This document shows positions 50,327 to 64,000 of a stretch of DNA of 64,000 bases, piece by piece. This DNA comes from a plasmid, in the sequence record NZ_CP104760.1; one strand, 5' to 3'. Within the stretch, counting starts at the first letter, position 1. Every line of letters starts with the position of its first letter. The translations under genes were made by a program, and so were the position numbers. Under the pieces are notes generated by a model, which was given only the letters and a program-made list of their open reading frames with translations, had not been told where the DNA came from and searched no databases.

Positions 50327-51097
50327 TTAAACGCTCCTTTTCCCTGAGATGCTTACCGGACCCAATGGATAAGGCTTGTTCGGGTTATCCATCACCTGCT
50401 GGTAGTCAGCGCGGGCACCGGGAAAACCGATCAGTTTCCATGAGGCGAGTGTCTGGTTACCACCATGCATCGGATCGGCGAGATAACCCTCCTGGGTATT
50501 CTCCAGTAACTGTTGGAAAAACAACTTCCCGGGAACGGCTTCAAAAATGAGTTTGCCCGCTTCGAGCTGACGCAGAATATCTTCCTGCTGTTCGTGGCTG
50601 AGGTCGGCGAAGACGTTTTGAAACTGCTGCTGGCAGTGTTCGTTAACGGCTTTAATACCGCGGCGATAGGTTTCGCGTGGCACAAGATTTGACTGATAGC
50701 CCAGTTCCGGCGCGGCGCTCGCGAAGGGAGCCTGCATATACCACAGCTGGCCATGCCCGTAAGGGAGCTCCATCTGTTTATCAATAAAAACCGGTACGCC
50801 TTCGCTGACAGCACCGGGACCATTACTGTCGCCGGGAATCAATCGATCGGTGGCCGCCAGAATGAAACGCCATTCTTCATTGTTGAAAAAAGTCGGCACG
50901 TAGTGATCTGAAACGCCAGCCGATTTTGTGTCGGTGTCTGCTGCGAGAACGCTAGCAGGCGCAATACTGCCGCCGACAACTGACAGAGGTATAAGTGACA
51001 GGGTTTTTTGCAGAAAGCTTCGCCGCGAGGCGCTATCCCCGTTAAGTTTTTTGCTCATTTTGCCTTCCAGTTGGTGTTTGCCAAATTGCCTGCTCAA
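50327..51097 (-). CDS. Gluconate 2-dehydrogenase subunit 3 family protein (gamma subunit, Tat signal; paralogue of 37674..38402)
   Basis: Tat motif SRRSFLQKTLSLIPLSVVGG and the conserved GYLADPMHGGNQTLASWKLIGFPGARADY block. Confidence 0.8.
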   Translation of the reverse strand: MSRQFGKHQLEGKMSKKLNGDSASRRSFLQKTLSLIPLSVVGGSIAPASVLAADTDTKSAGVSDHYVPTFFNNEEWRFILAATDRLIPGDSNGPGAVSEGVPVFIDKQMELPYGHGQLWYMQAPFASAAPELGYQSNLVPRETYRRGIKAVNEHCQQQFQNVFADLSHEQQEDILRQLEAGKLIFEAVPGKLFFQQLLENTQEGYLADPMHGGNQTLASWKLIGFPGARADYQQVMDNPNKPYPLGPVSISGKRSV

Positions 51098-51731
51098 CAG
51101 GTGCCAGTGGCACTATGTTAAGCACGCTAATAGTTCTTCTAGGAATTAATATGCTGCTAAAGTAATCTATTTTATTGAATGCAGAGATTAATAATTTGTT
51201 AAATTTTGTAAAGGTAATGTAAATTCACGGTTAAGCTTTAAAATCAGGTCCTTTGTTATCCTTATGATCGCTGGTGCCTGTCTGAACAATATTGATCCAG
51301 TTCATAAGTATCAGTACGTACTGATGGTTAATGCCGATGAGTTGGTCTGGAGAGACAGCGAACACGTCCGTCTGATGCGTGCAGGCTGTTTCAGGGGTGG
51401 GTAATGGCCAGCGGTGAGCGCGTCGTAGTCGTCTCCGGCGAAAAATCTGCAGAGCGTTATTAAGAGTGCGTGGATATCACCCAATATAAGTGTCGCCGGT
51501 AAGACAGCACGCTCTGGCAAATGGGTAAACAAAATTAATTATTACGCACGCAGCTGTAAGGTAACGCAGCGTGACATTCTGGAAGGGCTTTGATGCCTGT
51601 GGCGGTTTTAGGATAAAGGCCATGGTCTGGCTTAAAAGTACCTATACGACTGAATTTCGGACGCTTCCCTGGTCTCTTCTTTTATCCCCGATAGCAAAAG
51701 ATTTCATTCATGTGACGCTTTTTTGACAGCG

Positions 51732-51749
51732 CTGTCATAAATCTTTCAT
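51732..51749 (+). promoter_or_regulatory. Pho-box-like sequence CTGTCAT-AAAT-CTTTCAT upstream of the pit-ppk2 pair
   Basis: Two 7-bp direct repeats separated by a 4-bp AT spacer. They match the PhoB box consensus CTGTCAT-A(A/T)A(T/A)-CTGT(C/A)A(C/T) at 16/18 positions. An AT-rich -10-like TATATG follows about 8-10 bp downstream, and the site is about 75 bp upstream of the PiT start. Confidence 0.4.
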
Positions 51750-51823
51750 AAAGTCTTTATATGTTAGTCACACTAATCGTTGTGCTTTAAGCTGCTTTCG
51801 CGATCTACAGGATATCTTTTCTG

Positions 51824-54378: not shown

Positions 54379-54499
54379 TAGTCATCGTTCCGCCTGCTGC
54401 GGTCAGCGCAAACTGGCCGCGGCAGGGCTTCTTTCTAATCCGCTTTTAAAAGTTGCGCGCTAAGCTGTTATCGTGTGCTTACGAATTTCAGCTTTTCAA

Positions 54500-54970
54500 G
54501 GTGTCTTTTGCTTTAGGTAAGCATTTATTCTGCACTGCGTAATGTTAACAGTGGCGTGTCCTATTGCTTCCCGGACTGATATCAGGTTTTCCCCGTTATC
54601 CAGCATCATTGAAGCAAAAGCGCGATGTATATCATGGCTTCGGTGTCAGCCCTGCGCTGTTCGTGGATGTTATATACCGCCTGTGGGGCATATGTTGAGA
54701 AGTCATATCGTCACCGGGGCGCTTACTTTTGAAGTACAGCCACCCTCTCGCTCTGAATGTTATCCGTCCAAATATCAATATATCGCCAGATGTTTTCTGG
54801 CATAAATACCATGAGTTCCTTGTTGCCCTCATCCTCCCGAATAATATATGCTCCTGAGAAAAGATGCCGTCTAGTCCAGCCCAACCTTCTGAACGGTGTA
54901 GACAGCCGGCGAGCATGACTGCCAGCATAGCGGCATCGCAAGGTCTTTTTAGCTAGCGTCCCATTCACAG
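54500..54970 (-). pseudogene. Tyrosine-recombinase (phage-type integrase) remnant, frameshifted; marks the left boundary of a lower-GC island
   Basis: The minus-strand translation gives the C-terminal catalytic block ...NSAGLTP | HDIHRAFASMMLDNGENLISVREAIGHATVNITQ.RINAYL (compare the integrase consensus LTPHDLRHTFAS...G.....V...LGHS......RYAHL). It is split between two frames (the 98-aa and 81-aa ORFs at 54632..54968) and has no intact N-terminal domain. GC content drops to the right of this point. Confidence 0.5.
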
Positions 54971-55801
54971 CTACGGAAAAGAGCTCGGTGCTAGCGCGTG
55001 GCCGCGGAGCAGTTGACTAACCTACATCGCATGCATTGCCAGAGCCTGCTGATAACTTCTCATATCCATTTGCTTTATCATCCGCGTCTCGCAGGTAGTG
55101 CCTTTAAGAACATACAGATAGATTTTGACAGTGACTGGTGCCCTACCGCTGTCTGAAAGCAGCTTCAACATGCCCCGGATATAGTGTCGCCGTAGTCAAC
55201 CTCTGGCGCTGCTCTTCAGAAAAAAACCGGGCATATACGGCACGATATTAAGAAAGGATTCATCGTTTGACGGCTTGCGGTGCAGGACAGCCCTTCTAAG
55301 TCAGGATTCATCAATGGGCTGCTGTTTATAATCTTAAGGGCAGACACGTTTTGTGCTTATGCTGGTGACAGTGTTAGCTTGAACGAAAGGAATCTAGTCG
55401 GTCGTTTTTCCCCAAAGAGATTATGGCGTGGGGCCTGTGTGATAAGCAGAATCTGACAGGATACCTCCTGCCAGGCCGCATCTGGTAAAGGTACTTTTTC
55501 AAAGAGACATTTTAATAAGTAGGAGTAATCTAGGCTAAGCCTGCTAACAGTTGCACAGAATGTCGTCCAAGAAATCTGGCTGACATATAGTCAGTGACGT
55601 TGATGAGCAAAAAATGTAAAATTTTTCAGAGCAATTTCATGCTTCAAAGCTTTATAAATGGCATGATAAATGCTTGCAGCAAGTCGTATATTAGATAAGC
55701 TGGATAATTTCCTTTGTCCATACCTAACTAAACATCGATTTGGCCAGAATGATATATATCCCGCATATAAAGATAGTAAGGCAATTTTGTGAAAATCAGT
55801 G

Positions 55802-55831
55802 TTGACACAAATTATATGATAAGAGATTATT
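55802..55831 (+). promoter_or_regulatory. Candidate sigma70 promoter of the unknown cassette (TTGACA, 17-bp spacer, GATTAT)
   Basis: TTGACA at 55802..55807 and GATTAT at 55825..55830 in an AT-rich leader, about 30 bp upstream of the 55861 start. Sequence inspection only. Confidence 0.3.
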
Positions 55832-55860
55832 TAAATGGTGATTTATAGGGCGCCTTCTTT

Positions 55861-56223
55861 ATGAGTGAAACTATTCAGATATTACAGATATTTCTTAGTT
55901 GGCCTGCTGTATTTATAATATGTATGATTATAATGTTTAATCCGATCCGTTTGCTTTTGAAGCGTTTGGCTGAAAGCAATACAGCTAAAGCCAAACTCGG
56001 GTTTGTTGAAATTGAAATAGGTGAATTGGCCAAGAAAGGTAAGGCAGCAGTAGATAGCATCAACGAGCTTAATTTGATTATGGCAAAAACACGTTTGCTT
56101 GAACTGGAAGTTACAAAAGCAAATTTTTCCATGAGTTTTACGGGCGAAGAACAACTGAAATTAAATGGTTTAATCCTTGATCTCAAGAAAAATATTGATC
56201 ATTTAGAAAGGGAAATAATATGA
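55861..56223 (+). CDS. Hypothetical small protein with an N-terminal TM helix and a coiled-coil C-terminus (120 aa)
   Basis: AT-rich (roughly 35% GC) ORF. Hydrophobic segment WPAVFIICMIIMF followed by heptad-like charged repeats. Its stop overlaps the next ORF's start (ATGA), indicating translational coupling. Confidence 0.5.
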   Translation: MSETIQILQIFLSWPAVFIICMIIMFNPIRLLLKRLAESNTAKAKLGFVEIEIGELAKKGKAAVDSINELNLIMAKTRLLELEVTKANFSMSFTGEEQLKLNGLILDLKKNIDHLEREII

Positions 56224-57431
56224 AGGTTTACCTTCTCAAGAATAAAATTATAATATCTTTTACGCCTTTTTTAGATGTTGCGATAAAAATATATGTTGAA
56301 GAAGGTATGGTTTTTTCAGATATTTATCATGGTAGAGTTGTTCACTCTCGCGAGACAGATTGTGGGATACCTCTCTTTAATGTAGATGTGATGGGAAGAA
56401 ATGCTGTAAACCATTTGATATACCTTCTTGGACGTCAGCCTGACGATGAGCTGATATATCAACTGCGATACGTTGACGCACAGGTTGAACTTTTTAATTC
56501 TTTGGCAGCGAGCCGGGCATTGACAGAGTTATATAGTGATTGCCCTAATTTGGCCTGGATAATAGTAATGAAAAATTACTATTCTGTAGGGTCCCATGTA
56601 TATGAGTACCTTTCTAGAATGAAGAGGCGAAACTTATTATTCTTCTTGAATGATATCGAGCCTTCAGAGCGCCGTGTCAGGGTTCTTAAAAAGACCACTT
56701 TACTTTCCGGACGCAGAGAAGAACTCAGATGGTTGATTCACTGTATGCGTAATGATGACATCCTTGATGCATATAAGCATCATCACTCAATGACATTACA
56801 AGAGCTTTATCTTTCTTTACGATATAGGATTCTTGCGGGATCAACGCTTTTAAAATCAATTTCTAGCCAAAGAAAGCCATTCCTAAGGGATTATAAAGCT
56901 GGAATGTGCTCGCTTCAGCATATTGTGAAGGACAGTATTAGAGTTGGAGAAAATATAGGCATAAAAAAAGCGTCTAATATAGTATTGGAATGCAGGAGCA
57001 AAGAAGACGTTAGATCTTTACATGATGAATGGTCTAAGAGGCTACTGGAAACTACTCGGTTTTTGAAACAGGATATTTATTTTGAAGAGCCTAGCCTTAC
57101 TCCTGAAGAAGGCATAACCTTCATAAATTCTGTTAATGCTTTGATAGCTGAAGGTAGAGATATGAAACATTGCGTGGCCTCTTACAAGGCGAGAGTAATG
57201 GCTGGAGAATCCTATATATATTCTGTCATAACCCCTTGGGGAGTAAGAGCCACTGTAGAGCTTGGATTATTAAAAGGGGTATATGTTCCTCTTCAGATAA
57301 AGGGAAAAGAAAATCGTAATTTAGATAATTTTTCTTTAAACTATATTCGGACTTGGCTCGATAATGAAAATAAAAAGTTGAAAGCTTCTCTTATTTATTA
57401 TTCACAATTCCATACGGAGAAAAGCGCATAG
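56220..57431 (+). CDS. Hypothetical 403-aa soluble protein with a C-terminal PcfJ-like motif region
   Basis: AT-rich and without TM segments. The C-terminal block ALIAEGRDMKHCVASYKARVMAGESYIYSVITPWGVRATVELGL resembles, from memory, the conserved EG..M.HCV..Y core of the PcfJ-like family (PF14284). This domain call is tentative. Confidence 0.5.
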   Translation: MKVYLLKNKIIISFTPFLDVAIKIYVEEGMVFSDIYHGRVVHSRETDCGIPLFNVDVMGRNAVNHLIYLLGRQPDDELIYQLRYVDAQVELFNSLAASRALTELYSDCPNLAWIIVMKNYYSVGSHVYEYLSRMKRRNLLFFLNDIEPSERRVRVLKKTTLLSGRREELRWLIHCMRNDDILDAYKHHHSMTLQELYLSLRYRILAGSTLLKSISSQRKPFLRDYKAGMCSLQHIVKDSIRVGENIGIKKASNIVLECRSKEDVRSLHDEWSKRLLETTRFLKQDIYFEEPSLTPEEGITFINSVNALIAEGRDMKHCVASYKARVMAGESYIYSVITPWGVRATVELGLLKGVYVPLQIKGKENRNLDNFSLNYIRTWLDNENKKLKASLIYYSQFHTEKSA

Positions 57432-57559
57432 ACGCGTGGCAGCTGCTGCTCAGCGCGGGGCGCAACGACTGGCTTATTTCGGCCGTGACCTCAGAGTTGA
57501 CTGACTCCGCCAATGGTTTACTCTGCGTACCTTCATACGGATAGGCAGAGGAGAGGATC

Positions 57560-58564
57560 ATGGACGAGCTGAAGAAAAAGTTTGAGGTGGCGGAGAAGGG
57601 GATCTCCGTTCTGACAAAAGCCTCCTTAGGATTAGGGAGCGCGATTTTCCTGATTTACTGCATGATGAACGGCGGTTTTCCCGACGGGCTCTCACTGTCG
57701 GACAGCCTTCGCATACTTTATATTTTCACAGTGTTTTCTGCAGGTACGCTCGTCTTTTATTTCTTTCTGATGTGTCTAGGTCTGTCCATCTGCCACCTGG
57801 TTTTTCGGCTGACAGGTTACTCTTTGATAGAACAGATCCTACTCAGGATGTCAGACACAGGCTACACTTCAGGGCAGCGCATGAGGGCGTTGCGCAAAGG
57901 TCCCTCTGAGTTTTACCGGACCCAGAAAAGAGAACGTCAATTTATTCATCACGTGGTTTTCCCGCCCATTGCCACTATTTTTCACAGTATTTCGGTATTT
58001 ACCGTTATTTTAATTATTACTCAGGTTCATCATGACCAGCTGCTGTGGTACTTCCGCCTTGTCATATCGGCTGTAGGGCTGGCAGTGTGGTTTGTCATAC
58101 TGGACTTCAACCGGCAGCGTCGGGGGCAGCTTAAGTTTGTTCTGCCCGGAGAACATGCAGTGGAGAGGGCAGAGAAGGATATCAGAACAGGTAATATGAT
58201 CCTTTCAATTGCTATACCGCTTGTCGTGACAATGCTTCTTGGACTCTTTGGTGATTCCGCTGAACGAACCATGAAAGTTCTTGGATTTCGTCACGACAGC
58301 GCGATCGTGTACGTCAAAAAGGAATGGAGTTCTGTGCTCACACGTCACGGAGTCAAAGGCAGCGAGGCTGAACTGCCACCTTATGCGTCCAGGTATGATA
58401 ACGTCACGGTAGCCCTGTCCTCGTTTGGTACCTCAGTCACGCTGCAGTTTCATAGCGATAAAGCTCCGCACACCCAGACGCTTCGCGTGCCCGCCTCTGA
58501 GGTGCTGATCGATCCTCTCCACGGTTCTCCCGATGGTTCTGTAACGGCGTCTTCTGTCGACTGA
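57560..58564 (+). CDS. Hypothetical inner-membrane protein (about 5 TM helices plus a soluble C-terminal tail of about 100 aa)
   Basis: 334 aa with a good RBS (GAGGAGAGG). GC content is about 50%, higher than the two genes before it. Hydrophobic segments occur around residues 27-47, 57-80, 125-147, 157-180 and 205-228. Confidence 0.5.
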   Translation: MDELKKKFEVAEKGISVLTKASLGLGSAIFLIYCMMNGGFPDGLSLSDSLRILYIFTVFSAGTLVFYFFLMCLGLSICHLVFRLTGYSLIEQILLRMSDTGYTSGQRMRALRKGPSEFYRTQKRERQFIHHVVFPPIATIFHSISVFTVILIITQVHHDQLLWYFRLVISAVGLAVWFVILDFNRQRRGQLKFVLPGEHAVERAEKDIRTGNMILSIAIPLVVTMLLGLFGDSAERTMKVLGFRHDSAIVYVKKEWSSVLTRHGVKGSEAELPPYASRYDNVTVALSSFGTSVTLQFHSDKAPHTQTLRVPASEVLIDPLHGSPDGSVTASSVD

Positions 58565-58740: not shown

Positions 58741-59622
58741 TTAAGCCCTTAGCTTTAGTGCGCGTAGCCAGAGGTCTACCTGGCCATATGCATCCTGTTG
58801 CCACTGTTCGGGCGTGCGTTCTCCAAGAAGGTCAGTCTCTTCAATGAATCTTCTGACACAGGTAGGCCCATAACCGTCCACATCATCGAATTTTTGTGCA
58901 ATATAGCTGTACCCAATGGCCCCGCTTTTTTCAGCAAGCACCGGGATACATGCTTCAGCGAGTGCTTCTGGCCCATCTACATAATTACGGACACAATAAT
59001 AAATATCGTAAGAATCTTTCTGCTTATGACGACCATTAATAGCATAACCTTTCATGGCCAGGAGCGCAGGAATCGAACATACTGCTATTTCTACGGTATT
59101 TCTTCCACCCTGCGGCATGTTTCCGCTTAGTGCCACCATCTCATAAAATTTGAGCGCAAGATCAGCGCCATCTGCGCGTTGCACCGCAAAATTGCTGAGC
59201 AGTGGAGGAGAGTTTTTAACAAGTTCTGCATCCCTTGGGCGAAGGAAATCTATGATAATGTCAATAGCCGGGCCTTGCGCAGTTTCTGCTATGGTGCGTA
59301 CAAGCTGAAATGCTCTGGTAAATCCCTCGCGTTGCTCATATCCGCATCCCTGAAGGCTTTCCACCAGAGTCGCGTATTCACCATCACCCAGCGCTGTTGA
59401 ATCTAGATCTAAATCGATATCGAGAGTCCCAACATGTGGCATGTCGTCATTGTTAAGAAGTAACCAAGGTACCTCACCCCCAATAACTGTGTATTTCCCT
59501 TTATAGCTACCCAGAATCTGCCCAATCTCAATCAAAACAGATTTAACGGCAGCTGTCGTTCTGTCTTCATAGTCAGCCGCCGACTGCGGCTCTCTTATTG
59601 TCATTTTTACCAATTCATCCAT
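58741..59622 (-). CDS. Nucleotidyltransferase, AbiEii/AbiGii-like toxin (type IV TA / abortive infection)
   Basis: 293 aa. The NTase motif VIGGEVPWLLL...HVGTLDIDLDLD fits the AbiEii pattern hGG.....x(n)....S.DIDh. Its start overlaps the stop of the upstream gene by 16 nt, as in abiEi-abiEii operons. Confidence 0.6.
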   Translation of the reverse strand: MDELVKMTIREPQSAADYEDRTTAAVKSVLIEIGQILGSYKGKYTVIGGEVPWLLLNNDDMPHVGTLDIDLDLDSTALGDGEYATLVESLQGCGYEQREGFTRAFQLVRTIAETAQGPAIDIIIDFLRPRDAELVKNSPPLLSNFAVQRADGADLALKFYEMVALSGNMPQGGRNTVEIAVCSIPALLAMKGYAINGRHKQKDSYDIYYCVRNYVDGPEALAEACIPVLAEKSGAIGYSYIAQKFDDVDGYGPTCVRRFIEETDLLGERTPEQWQQDAYGQVDLWLRALKLRA

Positions 59623-60692
59623 TCATTGCGGAGGTGCTCAGCAGCTTCCTGTCCACGCTCACCCTGTACTGAAAGATCGAGGTAGGTCTGCACGACGCCT
59701 GTTGTGAAAATGTCATCTGCCGGTTCGATAGTATCAAGGAATATTCCCGGATCATTAGGCATTGTAATCGTTACATTGGCACCCTTTGAAGTGGTGCTTA
59801 GCTTTAGACCGGTAAATAGCTTCTCCATGCCTTTTTCATCGGCATAGAAATAATGCATTCCTGTGCGGCCATAGGGGGATAGCCACTGGGCGGCAGAAAA
59901 TGAAGCCAGAACCGCATAACCCTGCACTTCATCACAACTTAATAATTTGCGCAACTGGGACTCCAGAGCACTCCCGTGCAGGGGGGTATAGAAGGTTTTT
60001 TTTGTTCCCGGTAATCGGCTATAGTTGTCACGCCACTCATTTACTAGCGCCGCTGGATTTTCCAACACAAGCCCTTCATCGCTGCTGATGGCCCATTCTC
60101 TTTCCAGCAAATTTTTACGCACGTTGCTTGCATGCCCCAGACTCACCATTCCTTCCTCTGACAGTTCGGAAACCTTCCAGGCGCGTAAGGGAGCGTTTAG
60201 CATCATTCGCAGTACCTGCGCTGACTTCGGGCTGAACATAGTGCGAAGACCACGTTTTTCAGGGGCTGGTTTCCCTGACATCTGATGATCGATATAAACT
60301 CCCCCAAACTGGATTCGCGCATTTCCCTCCATATCCATAAAAGAAATCTTATTATCCCGACAAATCTTGCGGGCATCAGGAGAGAGGTAAGGTGCGAGGA
60401 GTACAGGTGTCATGATGTCCTCTCTGCCGTACATATATGATCGAAGGCCGTTTACTGCGGAGCGAACGAATCGGGGTTGGCCACTATTCTTCGTTTCACA
60501 GGCAAGGGTATGGTCTTCTTTGCCTATCCGGACATTTATCAAGTAGTCAATACTTGCGTCTGTGCTAGGCCCATCACTCACCATTTTGACCCTCTCAATG
60601 ATAGGTACTTGTTCCAGAAGAGACTGCAGTTTCTGGATGTAGGCAAAGGATGGCTCATGTTTAAATTTCATTCTACTCTCATGTTTCATCAT
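59607..60692 (-). CDS. Putative AbiEi-like antitoxin / transcriptional autoregulator (long form, 361 aa)
   Basis: Called from its position immediately upstream of the NTase toxin gene and overlapping it, and from its palindrome-rich promoter. The sequence itself is not recognised with confidence. Confidence 0.4.
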   Translation of the reverse strand: MMKHESRMKFKHEPSFAYIQKLQSLLEQVPIIERVKMVSDGPSTDASIDYLINVRIGKEDHTLACETKNSGQPRFVRSAVNGLRSYMYGREDIMTPVLLAPYLSPDARKICRDNKISFMDMEGNARIQFGGVYIDHQMSGKPAPEKRGLRTMFSPKSAQVLRMMLNAPLRAWKVSELSEEGMVSLGHASNVRKNLLEREWAISSDEGLVLENPAALVNEWRDNYSRLPGTKKTFYTPLHGSALESQLRKLLSCDEVQGYAVLASFSAAQWLSPYGRTGMHYFYADEKGMEKLFTGLKLSTTSKGANVTITMPNDPGIFLDTIEPADDIFTTGVVQTYLDLSVQGERGQEAAEHLRNEWMNW

Positions 60693-61042: not shown

Positions 61043-64000
61043 CTACTGCTTGGCTATGTGAACCTCTGATGCTGTTACGCCCTCAGCAGTAGGAATAAGA
61101 GACCACAGGCGCGCATCAATGCCATCATTTTGCAGCTTGCGCATGAAATAGCGAGCCTGAAGGGCATCGTGCGTTGCTATTACTACCTGAAAACCATGAT
61201 CAACAATGTAATCCCGAAGTAAATCGAATACGGACGCTGCATGAACTAGGTCATGGTGTTGAGTCGGATCGTCCAGGAGCAGGCAGCGCCAAGAGGACCA
61301 CTGATGTTCAAGTGCCATTGAAAGCAGGAATGTCAGCTGCAAATCAGTCAGCTGCGCCTCGCTCGCGATAGCTGGTACCGGTACGGACTCGCCATGTAGT
61401 GACACAGAGACTTCAGCATGCTCCTTCCTGTATAAACTACGAAAATCAAGCTTAGTGCCAGTAAAGCGTTGCTCCCGGACGACGCGTTTTAATAATGACT
61501 GCCATCTGGGGATTACAGAGAGAACGTGTTTCTGCACGTTAGCTATTTCGGCAGACAGGCTGCGATTGAGCGTCTCCATCGCTCCGGATAACTTCTCCAA
61601 CTGTGCCTGGCTCAACTTTTCGTTCTCAATGCGCTGCTGAAGGGTCGTAGCAAACTCTTCCTCCGACAAGTCGCCTCGACGACGATCCATGAGTCCCTGC
61701 GCTAATCGTGTCTGTTCGAGCTTATTCCACGTACCAATTTCAATTTTGAGACTTTGTAGCTGTTCAGACCGGCGAGTAAGGTCAGCAGCAGAAGACTGCA
61801 ACTGGAGCTCTTTACTGTTAGCCACTTCGGGGGCAGGATCGCCGGCGAAATACAGTTGTCTCCAGGAGGCGCGTATTGTTGCCAGTTGAGCTTGAGCATC
61901 CGTAATCTGCCTCTGGAGTGCTGTTACCATGTTATCCGACTCGCTTAAGGTGGCCTGCTGGCGGTCCAGTGCGGATTGACCTGCAGCAATATTAGCGGCC
62001 AATTCACTGAGTTTGTTAGAGTTCCTGTTCTGAGCAATAGCTAATTCTGCCAGCGTTTTTGAAGGGGGTGTCTCTGCGATAATAGCCGCTAATGCAGCTG
62101 TTGACTGCTCAAGACTGGCCAGGGCCTGAGTCCGGCTCTGCCGGGATGTGTTCAGAGCACGCTCTGCAGTTTCGAAAGCTGCTTTGGATGCCTCTAGGGC
62201 ATCAGGTGCCGGTGGTCGGGCGAGGTTATTCTGTTTCTTGTCGAGCTGAAGCTTTGCTGCGGCATTTGACTCTACACGATGCTGGATAGATGCTTTAGCC
62301 TGTTCTACCGTATCGCCGTCGAGGAGAATATGCGTTTTGAGTTGATTAATATCTGCCGTCAGACGGGCTTCGTGGGATCTTAAGTTATCCCTTTTACTCT
62401 GGCACAATGTTAACTCAGTTTCGGCCTGCGTGACTGTTTCTGTGCATATGCGCAAGTAATCTGATGCTTTTTTGACGCGCTGTTCCGCTTCAATAACGTT
62501 GGGATCAATTACCTCTAGGGATTTGAGAATTCTTTTACGGAGTTCGATAGCACCGTGATCTACACGACAAAGAGGACAGTCTCCGCGATTGTCGGGTAAA
62601 TGGGCCGCAATGGATGCAACGGACTGCCTTATGGAATCTGCGGTTGAGGTTAACGTATCGTGAAGCTGCTTAGCATCCAGCACTTCTTTCTCAGCAGATG
62701 CCTTTGACAAAAAGGCATTACCAAGATGCACCTGGAGCACACCTTCCAGTGACTCTTGTTCTTTCAAAACAGCTGCATTGGTCGCAATCAGCTTAAGCGT
62801 TTCTTCCCAGCGGTTTATCAGCTGGTGTGCAGCGAGCAGATCGGCCTCTTCAGCTAGCAAAGCCTTACGCTGGTTGTTAATAAGGCCGTGTTCAACTCGG
62901 AGCTTTTCATTCCCCTCATGCAGGCTTCGGAAGGTCAAGGCCAAGGACTCAGCCTCTTTCACCCATTTATCAGCCGTTTCCAGTTGTTGCTTGTGCTGTT
63001 CGAGAACATCTTTTGTTTGCATTTCACTATTGAGTCGATGAAGCTGTTGTGCAATTGAATCACGCTCACCTTCCGCAATGACCATCTCCTGATGAAGCCG
63101 CCCGAATGCCTCAGTGACTTGTGTTCTTTCCTCCTGTTTTTGCGCCAGCACTTGGCGTGCGGCTAAAAGCTCCTTACCCAGCTGCTCGGAACGCGCCTGT
63201 TCTGAAACAAAGCGACCTATCAGCCCGTCAACTTCCACAAGCGCTGCAATTTTATCGCGCAATCTGTCCAGCTTAGTTTGTACTGTTAGCTCCAGTGCGC
63301 TATGCAGTGTTTCAAGGCTATCCAAGCCCACGGGGGGTACTAATAAGTCTAAAGGCAGTTGATCAGAGCTTTGCGTCTGACGGGCAATGTCGGAGATAGA
63401 CGCCGCAATGCTTTCTTTACTGCGCAAGACGCCCAGAGATTGGATTGACGCCATGTCCCGTTCAAGCACTAAGCTTTGCCATTCACCAAACTCGGCTTCG
63501 AGAGTAGCCAAAGTTCCTTTTGCTTGCTTCAGCTTGTCCGTCAGTACGCGGCGAATACTGCCAAGAGTCTGGCTGACTTGGGTGCTTTCTTTACCGATGG
63601 GCAACCGGGCCAGTTGTGCACCTGCCACTTTGGACTCTGCTTTTACAAGCCATTCCCCCTCGCGCTGATCCAGTAAATGGGTCAGTCGTAACAGAAAAGG
63701 AATGTCATCCATGTTCGTCCTCGGAAAAAGGGGGCTCAGGTCACCCGAGCGTTCTACTTTTCCTTGAATGTTCACCTGTGCGGAGGTCTGCACATCCCCG
63801 AAATCCAGGACAACCTTTGCTGTTGTCTGGCTGTCCCGAATGATGGGAGATAAATTCTTACCGAGGCGCAATATATTCCCAGTGAGGCTGAGTTCGATAG
63901 CCTCGAAGAACGCTGTTTTCCCTGTACCGTTGGGAGCCAGAAGAATTGTGGCCCCCTCGCTGAGCTCAATCCGGGTATCGGCACCGTACCGGCGGATGTT
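61043..64000 (-). CDS. SMC/SbcC(Rad50)-like ABC ATPase with a long coiled coil and a CxxC zinc hook; the 5' end runs off the window (at least 985 aa)
   Basis: On the minus strand at the window edge the frame reads ...ELSEGATILLAPNGTGKTAFFEAIELSLTG..., a Walker A motif, and is continuous with the listed 942-aa ORF. The coiled-coil region is several hundred residues long. A hook motif GDCPLCR sits mid-protein (about 62577..62588). The C-terminus has Walker B/D-loop CLLLDDPTQHHD and H-loop VVIATHD. The canonical LSGG signature is replaced by LTDLQLTFLL. The termini differ from housekeeping E. coli SbcC as I recall it. Confidence 0.7.
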   Translation of the reverse strand, partial: NIRRYGADTRIELSEGATILLAPNGTGKTAFFEAIELSLTGNILRLGKNLSPIIRDSQTTAKVVLDFGDVQTSAQVNIQGKVERSGDLSPLFPRTNMDDIPFLLRLTHLLDQREGEWLVKAESKVAGAQLARLPIGKESTQVSQTLGSIRRVLTDKLKQAKGTLATLEAEFGEWQSLVLERDMASIQSLGVLRSKESIAASISDIARQTQSSDQLPLDLLVPPVGLDSLETLHSALELTVQTKLDRLRDKIAALVEVDGLIGRFVSEQARSEQLGKELLAARQVLAQKQEERTQVTEAFGRLHQEMVIAEGERDSIAQQLHRLNSEMQTKDVLEQHKQQLETADKWVKEAESLALTFRSLHEGNEKLRVEHGLINNQRKALLAEEADLLAAHQLINRWEETLKLIATNAAVLKEQESLEGVLQVHLGNAFLSKASAEKEVLDAKQLHDTLTSTADSIRQSVASIAAHLPDNRGDCPLCRVDHGAIELRKRILKSLEVIDPNVIEAEQRVKKASDYLRICTETVTQAETELTLCQSKRDNLRSHEARLTADINQLKTHILLDGDTVEQAKASIQHRVESNAAAKLQLDKKQNNLARPPAPDALEASKAAFETAERALNTSRQSRTQALASLEQSTAALAAIIAETPPSKTLAELAIAQNRNSNKLSELAANIAAGQSALDRQQATLSESDNMVTALQRQITDAQAQLATIRASWRQLYFAGDPAPEVANSKELQLQSSAADLTRRSEQLQSLKIEIGTWNKLEQTRLAQGLMDRRRGDLSEEEFATTLQQRIENEKLSQAQLEKLSGAMETLNRSLSAEIANVQKHVLSVIPRWQSLLKRVVREQRFTGTKLDFRSLYRKEHAEVSVSLHGESVPVPAIASEAQLTDLQLTFLLSMALEHQWSSWRCLLLDDPTQHHDLVHAASVFDLLRDYIVDHGFQVVIATHDALQARYFMRKLQNDGIDARLWSLIPTAEGVTASEVHIAKQ

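Follow-up and report, generated by a model that had tools for sequence, protein, structure and literature searches.

A segment between positions 55,802 and 58,564 of a 64,000-nucleotide stretch of plasmid DNA (sequence record NZ_CP104760.1; the whole stretch is called the window in the following) raises the question of which of its genes belong together and what they might do for their carrier. A reading of the letters without database searches (the sequence-only reading) had proposed a three-gene cassette in a putative defence island, consisting of a gene for a small membrane protein (g1), a gene for a soluble PcfJ-like protein (g2) and a gene for a polytopic membrane protein (g3). All three open reading frames (ORFs) are indeed found on the same strand at the positions assigned there (Table 1). 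The comparisons reported here show that g1 and g2 form a conserved, selected and translationally coupled unit that moves as a unit, and that this pair is cargo of defence hotspots and defence islands. Judged from these contexts it represents a credible defence candidate. The sources searched apparently describe neither a PcfJ protein coupled to a membrane anchor nor the joint mobility of the two genes or their location in a defence hotspot.

A coupled gene pair that moves as a unit

The stop codon of g1 and the start codon of g2 share an ATGA, as had been noticed before, and a Shine-Dalgarno-like AAGGG is present within the 3' end of g1. In comparisons with orthologues, nonsynonymous divergence (dN) was 0.19-0.49 while synonymous divergence (dS) was saturated, and dN/dS stayed below 0.25 wherever it was computable; hence, both genes are under purifying selection. 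The sequence-only reading had left it to be checked whether homologues of the two genes occur together. In every context of a g1 homologue examined, g1 and g2 are adjacent, lie on the same strand and overlap by 4 or by 26-29 nucleotides (nt), and the PcfJ gene downstream encodes 400-404 amino acids (aa). These contexts comprise Pantoea (including Pantoea sp. A4), Erwiniaceae, Atlantibacter hermannii, Klebsiella aerogenes, Citrobacter koseri and E. coli, and further Pectobacterium polaris, Kosakonia, three metagenomic contigs and Oceanobacter antarcticus. In the last of these the g1 homologue is again found directly 5' of the PcfJ gene, which indicates that the pairing is kept down to approximately 30-35% identity. 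Among the genes called on one metagenomic contig (L014) there was no small one 5' of the PcfJ gene.

When the window was compared with the Erwiniaceae or Pantoea sp. A4 copies, DNA similarity was limited to positions 55854-57413, which corresponds to the two ORFs, and the flanks of the pair differ from island to island. DNA nearly identical to the cassette was not found among E. coli genomes or plasmids, and no flanking repeats, att-like sites, tRNA genes or Rfam families were found around it. A sigma-70-like promoter candidate is located about 30 nt 5' of g1 according to its consensus match (Table 1), and TTGACA followed after 17 nt by GAT(T/G)AT or AATCAT occurs at the equivalent position 5' of g1 in the Erwiniaceae (L001), K. 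aerogenes (L005) and metagenomic (L013) loci.

The GC content amounts to 33.6% in g1, 37.0% in g2 and 49.9% in g3, compared to 54% in the first 54.4 kb of the window. The contrast described in the sequence-only reading was thus confirmed for the two genes, while its value of 57% for the host was slightly too high. Its conclusion that low GC content argues for recent horizontal acquisition did not hold. In most hosts the GC content of the pair is 33-36%, and in two it is 43%, even for copies that are only about 50% identical, so that being AT-rich is a stable property of the cassette and no sign of recent arrival.

The membrane protein gene downstream is a neighbour

The third gene does not belong to the cassette, because its GC content is different, it occurs separately and it is missing from all other pair-bearing loci. 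For g3, 18 homologues were found, all of them from Pantoea or metagenomes. Two of these (P0014 and P0024) are encoded without g1 or g2, one of them behind a lysozyme remnant and the other in a plasmid-like region with ParA/ParB. The position of g3 on the same strand only 128 nt downstream of g2 could suggest a three-gene system with the protein of five transmembrane (TM) segments as membrane effector. However, the DNA homology of the cassette ends at position 57413, and together with the deviating GC content and the separate occurrence in other Pantoea contexts this refutes the three-gene cassette of the sequence-only reading as a conserved unit and makes such a system highly improbable. The five hydrophobic segments noticed earlier in the g3 protein were found again; they are followed by a soluble C-terminal part of about 100 aa. 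The protein matched no protein family and no PADLOC model.

The two proteins of the pair

The protein g1 has a short N-terminus followed by one predicted TM helix at aa 7-25, in agreement with the earlier reading, then a positively charged stretch, the conserved sequence SNTAKAKLGF.E.EIGEL and further helical sequence. Since the positive charges follow the TM helix, the positive-inside rule predicts that the C-terminal part faces the cytoplasm. Four g1 orthologues are 59-72% identical. A word-indexed search retrieved 26 clusters of g1 homologues with lengths of 86-141 aa, of which all species-named ones belong to Enterobacterales, and a further homologue was recognized in Oceanobacter (hhalign probability 99.6). 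No match to g1 was found among the families of Pfam, PADLOC, NCBIfam or PHROG. Membrane disruption, which had been considered from the sequence alone, is not supported; g1 has only the one TM helix and resembles neither a pore nor an effector.

The PcfJ-like motif suspected in g2 was verified by Pfam. The match to PF14284 is above the gathering threshold (E 4e-10, 40.1 bits at a cutoff of 25) and covers profile positions 3-136 of 147. The family is named after PcfJ of the Enterococcus faecalis plasmid pCF10, and g2 shares its core L.xEG..M.HC.ASY ... SYIY ... (E)RAT.E ... Q.K..N. The annotation as 'PcfJ domain-containing protein' already exists in RefSeq for the E. coli orthologue of g2. Compared to the wider family, the g2 sub-clade is distinguished by its length of about 400 aa, its own N-terminal strand-rich and helical regions and the coupling to a small membrane protein. 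Full-text literature searches and the supplements of two papers on P2 hotspots yielded no function assigned to PcfJ or PF14284. The C-terminus of g2 also matches PHROGs of unknown function, and there is no meaningful match in NCBIfam.

The window derives from a Pantoea; a protein identical to g2 (100%) is encoded in Pantoea sp. YU22, and the word-indexed search gave 13 clusters of full-length g2 homologues with 49-71% identity. An exhaustive profile search extended the family to 3315 representative clusters at E<=1e-3, of which 464 remained at E<=1e-10; the majority of these wider relatives have about 390 aa and are aligned across most of their length. Conserved positions in g2 are Q88, D238, H268, D269, E311, H317, C318, Y322, R343, T345, E347 and N365. 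In an alignment of 33 divergent members with 20-70% identity to g2, no substitution occurs at E311, C318, R343, T345 and N365, and conservation reaches at least 90% at H317, Y322 and E347. The polar residues conserved in the family are all intact in the Pantoea protein, and this set suggests an active or ligand-binding site. The PcfJ domain is probably an enzyme or a ligand-binding module with a conserved E/H-C/Y/R-T-E/N residue set.

The AlphaFold2 model of g2, based on an alignment of 13 sequences, reached a predicted local distance difference test (pLDDT) score of 77. The modelled chain begins with a sheet of five strands (aa 1-45), passes through a helical middle part and finishes with a C-terminal alpha/beta domain whose last element is a long helix. 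The part from aa 222 to 403 was modelled separately with pLDDT 84 and has the topology strand-helix-helix-strand-strand-strand-helix. Among solved structures there is a weak resemblance to the GNAT-like (acyl-CoA N-acyltransferase) fold and nothing more. Two interpretations of the conserved residues were dropped by eye, namely a PD-(D/E)xK nuclease and a papain-like Cys-His site, as the lysine of QxK is not conserved and a conserved strand histidine is missing.

A cargo slot in P2-like prophages

P2-like prophages carry the pair between gpS (tail completion) and gpV (baseplate) in E. coli, K. aerogenes, C. koseri, A. hermannii and Kosakonia, and also on several metagenomic contigs. The same interval of phage P2 (AF063097, 9368-10307) holds the nonessential orf30, with the terminator of the O operon on one side and the V promoter, which is activated by Ogr, on the other. 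P2-like phages have three regions in which horizontally acquired genes are commonly found, and that of orf30 is one of them (PMC3091744). P2 Orf30 (AAD03281) has no similarity to the pair (best BLASTP E 2.6), and Orf30 itself has no Pfam or PADLOC match. The E. coli variant of g1 is indexed in 1409 assembly blocks of the collection searched (its cluster lists 801 contigs), but among 5426 complete E. coli genomes only 6 carry the pair; RefSeq labels g1 there as 'hypothetical protein'.

The slot was surveyed with the E. coli flank-probe matches and the loci L143-L146. The probe, made of the concatenated flanks, identified 1064 E. coli genomes with flanks, from which an evenly spaced sample of 60 records was taken; 48 of these had both flanks joined. 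The slot was empty in about 30 of the 48 sampled prophages (roughly 60%). Other occupants were DUF6216 proteins, hypothetical proteins, a SIR2 protein, a TIR protein and, in two partly covered records, an FRG protein. The SIR2 protein resembles the ThsA/LmuA SIR2 modules (PADLOC, approximately 1e-20), the FRG protein the candidate PDC-S15 (9e-32), and the TIR protein gave weak PADLOC matches to PDC-S66 and SpbK; one of the hypothetical proteins matched the peptidase_U41 model weakly (E 7e-8). Because the slot alternately holds SIR2, TIR and FRG proteins, its contents suggest that it behaves like the P2 defence hotspots gpA-gpQ and Z/fun (PMC9122126; 10.1101/2024.10.15.618418). The gpS-gpV interval is not among the P2 hotspots named in these two papers, which are gpA-gpQ, Z/fun and tail-CI.

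The pair could also be an accessory or lysogenic conversion module that has nothing to do with conflicts between phages and instead modifies the envelope, improves stress tolerance or contributes to lysis or tail assembly of P2. Such slots for accessory (moron) genes can hold non-defence cargo, the DUF6216 proteins common in this slot and P2 Orf30 are without known function, g1 is a membrane protein, and the family evidence gives no specific activity. Against a contribution to P2 assembly stands the large share of prophages with an empty slot, which shows that the pair is not needed for P2 morphogenesis. Furthermore, the repeated location next to defence genes in unrelated islands would be hard to explain in this way. 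Hence, we regard conversion apart from phage conflict as unlikely.

Regarding the architecture of the slot, the last approximately 35 codons of gpS vary with the cargo that follows. They are AT-rich and alike (LIIDLE.(I/L)L(L/V)EYF) in two PcfJ-carrying prophages (L137:7880-7983 and L003:9540-9638). As the 3' end of gpS differs by cargo, the recombination junction seems to be inside gpS. The promoter-like TTGACT of the cassette overlaps the gpS coding sequence in these prophages.

Islands outside prophages

Outside prophages, the pair was found in five different islands without phage structural genes, some of which contain decayed integrases. In the window it is accompanied by an integrase remnant, AbiE and Lamassu genes, which bears out the defence-island surroundings assumed in the sequence-only reading. 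The Pantoea sp. A4 island combines it with PDC-M01A/B and an integrase fragment, and the Erwiniaceae island with an SMC/ABC-like ATPase, HATPase_c and TCAD9 trio and transposases. In Oceanobacter, an integrase, an ABC-3C system (DUF2326/MC6/CTD10; PDC-M68B) and a RelE/helix-turn-helix (HTH) pair are present, while the Pectobacterium island contains a CI-type repressor and genes of unknown kind. The location of homologues beside defence genes that had been proposed as a check is found for close homologues, which reside in the gpS-gpV slot and in four other islands with defence-type neighbours.

The presence of a compact, coupled two-gene unit on mobile DNA beside AbiE or RelE/HTH genes, which are themselves of toxin-antitoxin type, would also be compatible with an addiction or toxin-antitoxin-like module that does no more than stabilize its carrier element and in which g1 neutralizes a toxic g2 or the reverse. 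However, neither protein resembles a known toxin or antitoxin, and a membrane-anchored antitoxin of 120 aa would be unusual. Moreover, g2-like proteins often stand alone in the wider family, which argues against a strong intrinsic toxicity of g2. Such a module therefore appears very unlikely.

For two of the islands the neighbouring clusters can be described in more detail. In the Erwiniaceae locus (L001:11474-15631, minus strand), an SMC_N/AAA_23 ATPase is encoded beside the pair together with a HATPase_c protein and a TCAD9/receiver-like protein. The ATPase has weak PADLOC matches to Ppl, mad3 and LmuB, and the three genes look like an unassigned conflict system. In Oceanobacter antarcticus (L023:2932-5439), the ABC-3C genes, encoding a DUF2326 ATPase similar to PDC-M68B, MC6 and CTD10, lie between the integrase and the pair, with the RelE/HTH pair on the opposite side.

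What the pair might do

The coupled and selected organisation, the mobility as a unit, the slot with defence-type cargo and the islands with defence-type systems together lead us to favour, if only by a modest degree, an accessory module that protects the lysogen or host against other phages. In this scheme, promoter, small membrane anchor and PcfJ-domain protein would constitute a self-contained mobile cassette, whose usual home would be the gpS-gpV (orf30) slot of P2-like prophages in Enterobacterales and which might have landed in a defence island here. Protection could be achieved by superinfection exclusion or by abortive infection. Translational coupling would provide the two proteins in fixed proportion, g1 would tether g2 at the cytoplasmic face of the inner membrane, and the PcfJ domain would act there on a component of the incoming or replicating phage. 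The complex of g1 and g2, its topology, its anti-phage role and its biochemical activity are what we infer from sequence and context. The more specific version, an unnamed anti-phage or anti-mobile-element system in which the g1 anchor positions a PcfJ enzyme at the inner membrane, is proposed tentatively and might well prove incorrect.

Prophage exclusion is exemplified by RexA/RexB of phage lambda, a two-component system with a membrane partner, and by SieA of P22 and gp15 of HK97, which are superinfection-exclusion proteins anchored in the membrane. Like RexA/RexB, the pair combines a small membrane protein with a soluble partner as prophage cargo that is apparently expressed apart from the lytic genes. 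No homology was detected, since no exclusion family of PADLOC or PHROG was matched, and g1 has one TM segment whereas RexB has four. The pair is also similar to the P2 accessory genes old, tin, fun(Z) and the orf30 region in being a nonessential insert between conserved late operons, at the very place of orf30. Phage exclusion is the function of old, tin and fun(Z) (PMC9122126; 10.1101/2024.10.15.618418). The pair differs from these genes by lacking similarity to Orf30 and by lacking a PADLOC model.

Several observations weigh against a protective role. None of the three proteins g1, g2 and g3 matched any of the 5027 models of PADLOC-DB v2.0.0 at E<=1, and the E. coli orthologues of g1 and g2 gave no PADLOC match at E<=1e-3; the cassette is thus unassigned, as the sequence-only reading had anticipated. 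The fold search gave no informative match, and the mechanism is hence a guess. In the E. coli and Atlantibacter prophages, g1 starts only 8-18 nt after gpS and a terminator was not detected, so that the pair may be part of a late lytic transcript there. The wider PcfJ family was additionally sampled with a hand-built degenerate DNA motif search, using one genome per species, which yielded at least 120 loci. Of the 42 loci that could be assessed, 41 encode the PcfJ protein with no g1 and amid heterogeneous neighbours; the one locus with a g1 homologue is that of Oceanobacter antarcticus. Furthermore, Foldseek searches in BFVD revealed PcfJ-like domains in phage proteins of 182-1403 aa, including those of virulent phages of Enterococcus, Listeria, Brochothrix, Bacillus, Lactobacillus and Acinetobacter (for example EFDG1, A9 gp163, LP-064, LP65, Shbh1 and ME3). 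The occurrence in virulent phages and on pCF10 fits a role that serves the element itself, for example in anti-defence, at least as well as host defence. Distant PcfJ proteins are solo, occur in varied mobile-element contexts and are present in virulent phages; hence, the domain as such is not diagnostic of defence.

These observations bring up a counter-defence or establishment function, in which the pair would be phage cargo that neutralizes the defence of a host or competitor or acts on DNA at entry, and would thus be used during infection instead of defending the lysogen. Such a function would match the many phages with PcfJ-like proteins, some of them large and virulent, which fall into PHROGs of unknown function, as well as the naming of the family after a gene of a conjugative plasmid. 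It would also match the position of the pair directly behind gpS in late-gene orientation in some P2-like prophages and the proteins in which PcfJ is joined to DnaA-type AAA or FtsZ/tubulin domains, which hint at neighbourhoods of mobile-element replication and partition. However, the pair persists under purifying selection in five islands that lack phage structural genes, it often has its own promoter-like element, and wherever an occupant of the P2 slot could be assigned to a family, it proved to be a defence-type protein. Moreover, IMG/VR viral contigs gave 0 matches to the degenerate motif pattern, and no isolated phage genome carries the pair according to tblastn at E<=1e-5; at E<=1, weak C-terminal matches to Enterococcus, Bacillus and Streptococcus phages were obtained and nothing else. 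We consider counter-defence therefore rather improbable, though it is the main alternative to protection.

Location in regions for conjugative transfer, which the sequence-only reading had named as a possible refutation of defence, was not observed. No transfer genes were found in the pair-bearing loci, and tblastn against the 72,556 plasmids of PLSDB gave one match, which is 26% identical and is located on a non-mobilizable Marinomonas replicon. In this regard the pair, which in the pair-bearing loci and PLSDB was not found on conjugative plasmids or in transfer regions, differs from PcfJ of pCF10.

If the pair protects against phages, as we favour, this would be the first function for PF14284, a family with more than 3000 representative clusters across regions resembling integrative and conjugative elements, plasmids and virulent phages, and the gpS-gpV slot of P2-like prophages would be a further defence hotspot. 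PcfJ is a widespread domain of mobile elements for which no function or solved structure is known, and the 1.6-kb pair in E. coli prophages provides a clean handle on it. Should the pair prove not to be defensive, the alternative of a counter-defence role in common with virulent phages would be no less informative.

Further PcfJ-family contexts

No conserved operon partner was found in the wider PcfJ family. An HTH regulator cluster (apparently WYL-type by eye) is located near PcfJ in 18 of 120 loci. Two PcfJ-family genes stand in tandem or close to each other at L038:1048-3683, L079:1900-6019, L099:4564-7673 and L063:6023-7991. The joined proteins mentioned above are metagenomic (P0123, P0164 and P0049) and could be true fusions or the result of merging separate gene calls; in both cases, some PcfJ genes lie beside genes for replication or partition of mobile elements.

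Neighbourhood of the pair in the window

The coordinates of the pair and its neighbours are compiled in Table 1. The decayed integrase noticed to the left of the pair in the sequence-only reading was found again. Its remnant reads HDIHRAFASMMLDNGENLISVREAIGHATV and matches Phage_integrase of Pfam below threshold (E 0.0015, fragment of 49 aa), and more degraded integrase fragments may reach to approximately position 55160. To the right, the presumed AbiE-like pair corresponds to AbiEii and AbiEi_2, and the zinc-hook SMC-like ATPase turned out to be LmuB of Lamassu. A role of g1 or g2 as component or partner of AbiE was rejected, as AbiE genes are missing from all other pair-bearing loci.

Table 1. 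Coordinates of the gene pair and neighbouring features in the window
Feature	Position	Strand	Description	Basis
Promoter candidate, sigma-70-like	55802-55830	+	TTGACA, 17 nt spacer, GATTAT	consensus scan, 10/12
g1	55861-56223	+	120 aa, single predicted TM helix	ORF list and hydropathy
g2	56220-57431	+	403 aa, soluble PcfJ-domain protein, no TM segment by hydropathy	ORF list
PcfJ domain of g2	56928-57317	+	aa 237-366	Pfam PF14284
g3	57560-58564	+	334 aa, five TM segments; neighbour, outside the cassette	ORF list, hydropathy
Tyrosine recombinase (integrase), C-terminal remnant	54496-54645	-	broken by stop codons	translation
AbiEii	58741-59622	-		Pfam above cutoff; PADLOC AbiEii 2.5e-5
AbiEi_2	59607-60692	-		Pfam above cutoff
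LmuB, Lamassu SMC-like ATPase	61043-64000	-	frame open past window end	PADLOC 2.1e-56

LmuA and LmuC were not seen in the window, and any such genes 5' of LmuB would fall outside it. The LmuB frame runs off the window end, and therefore the ORF list gives only an internal TTG start. Its Walker A motif APNGTGKT is found in the last 130 bases of the window and the zinc-hook-like motif CPLC in the middle of the protein. Farther to the left, positions 50750-51800 of the window have a GC content of 44-47% and no long ORF; this segment is situated between a gluconate-dehydrogenase-like operon and a phosphate-transporter-like gene.

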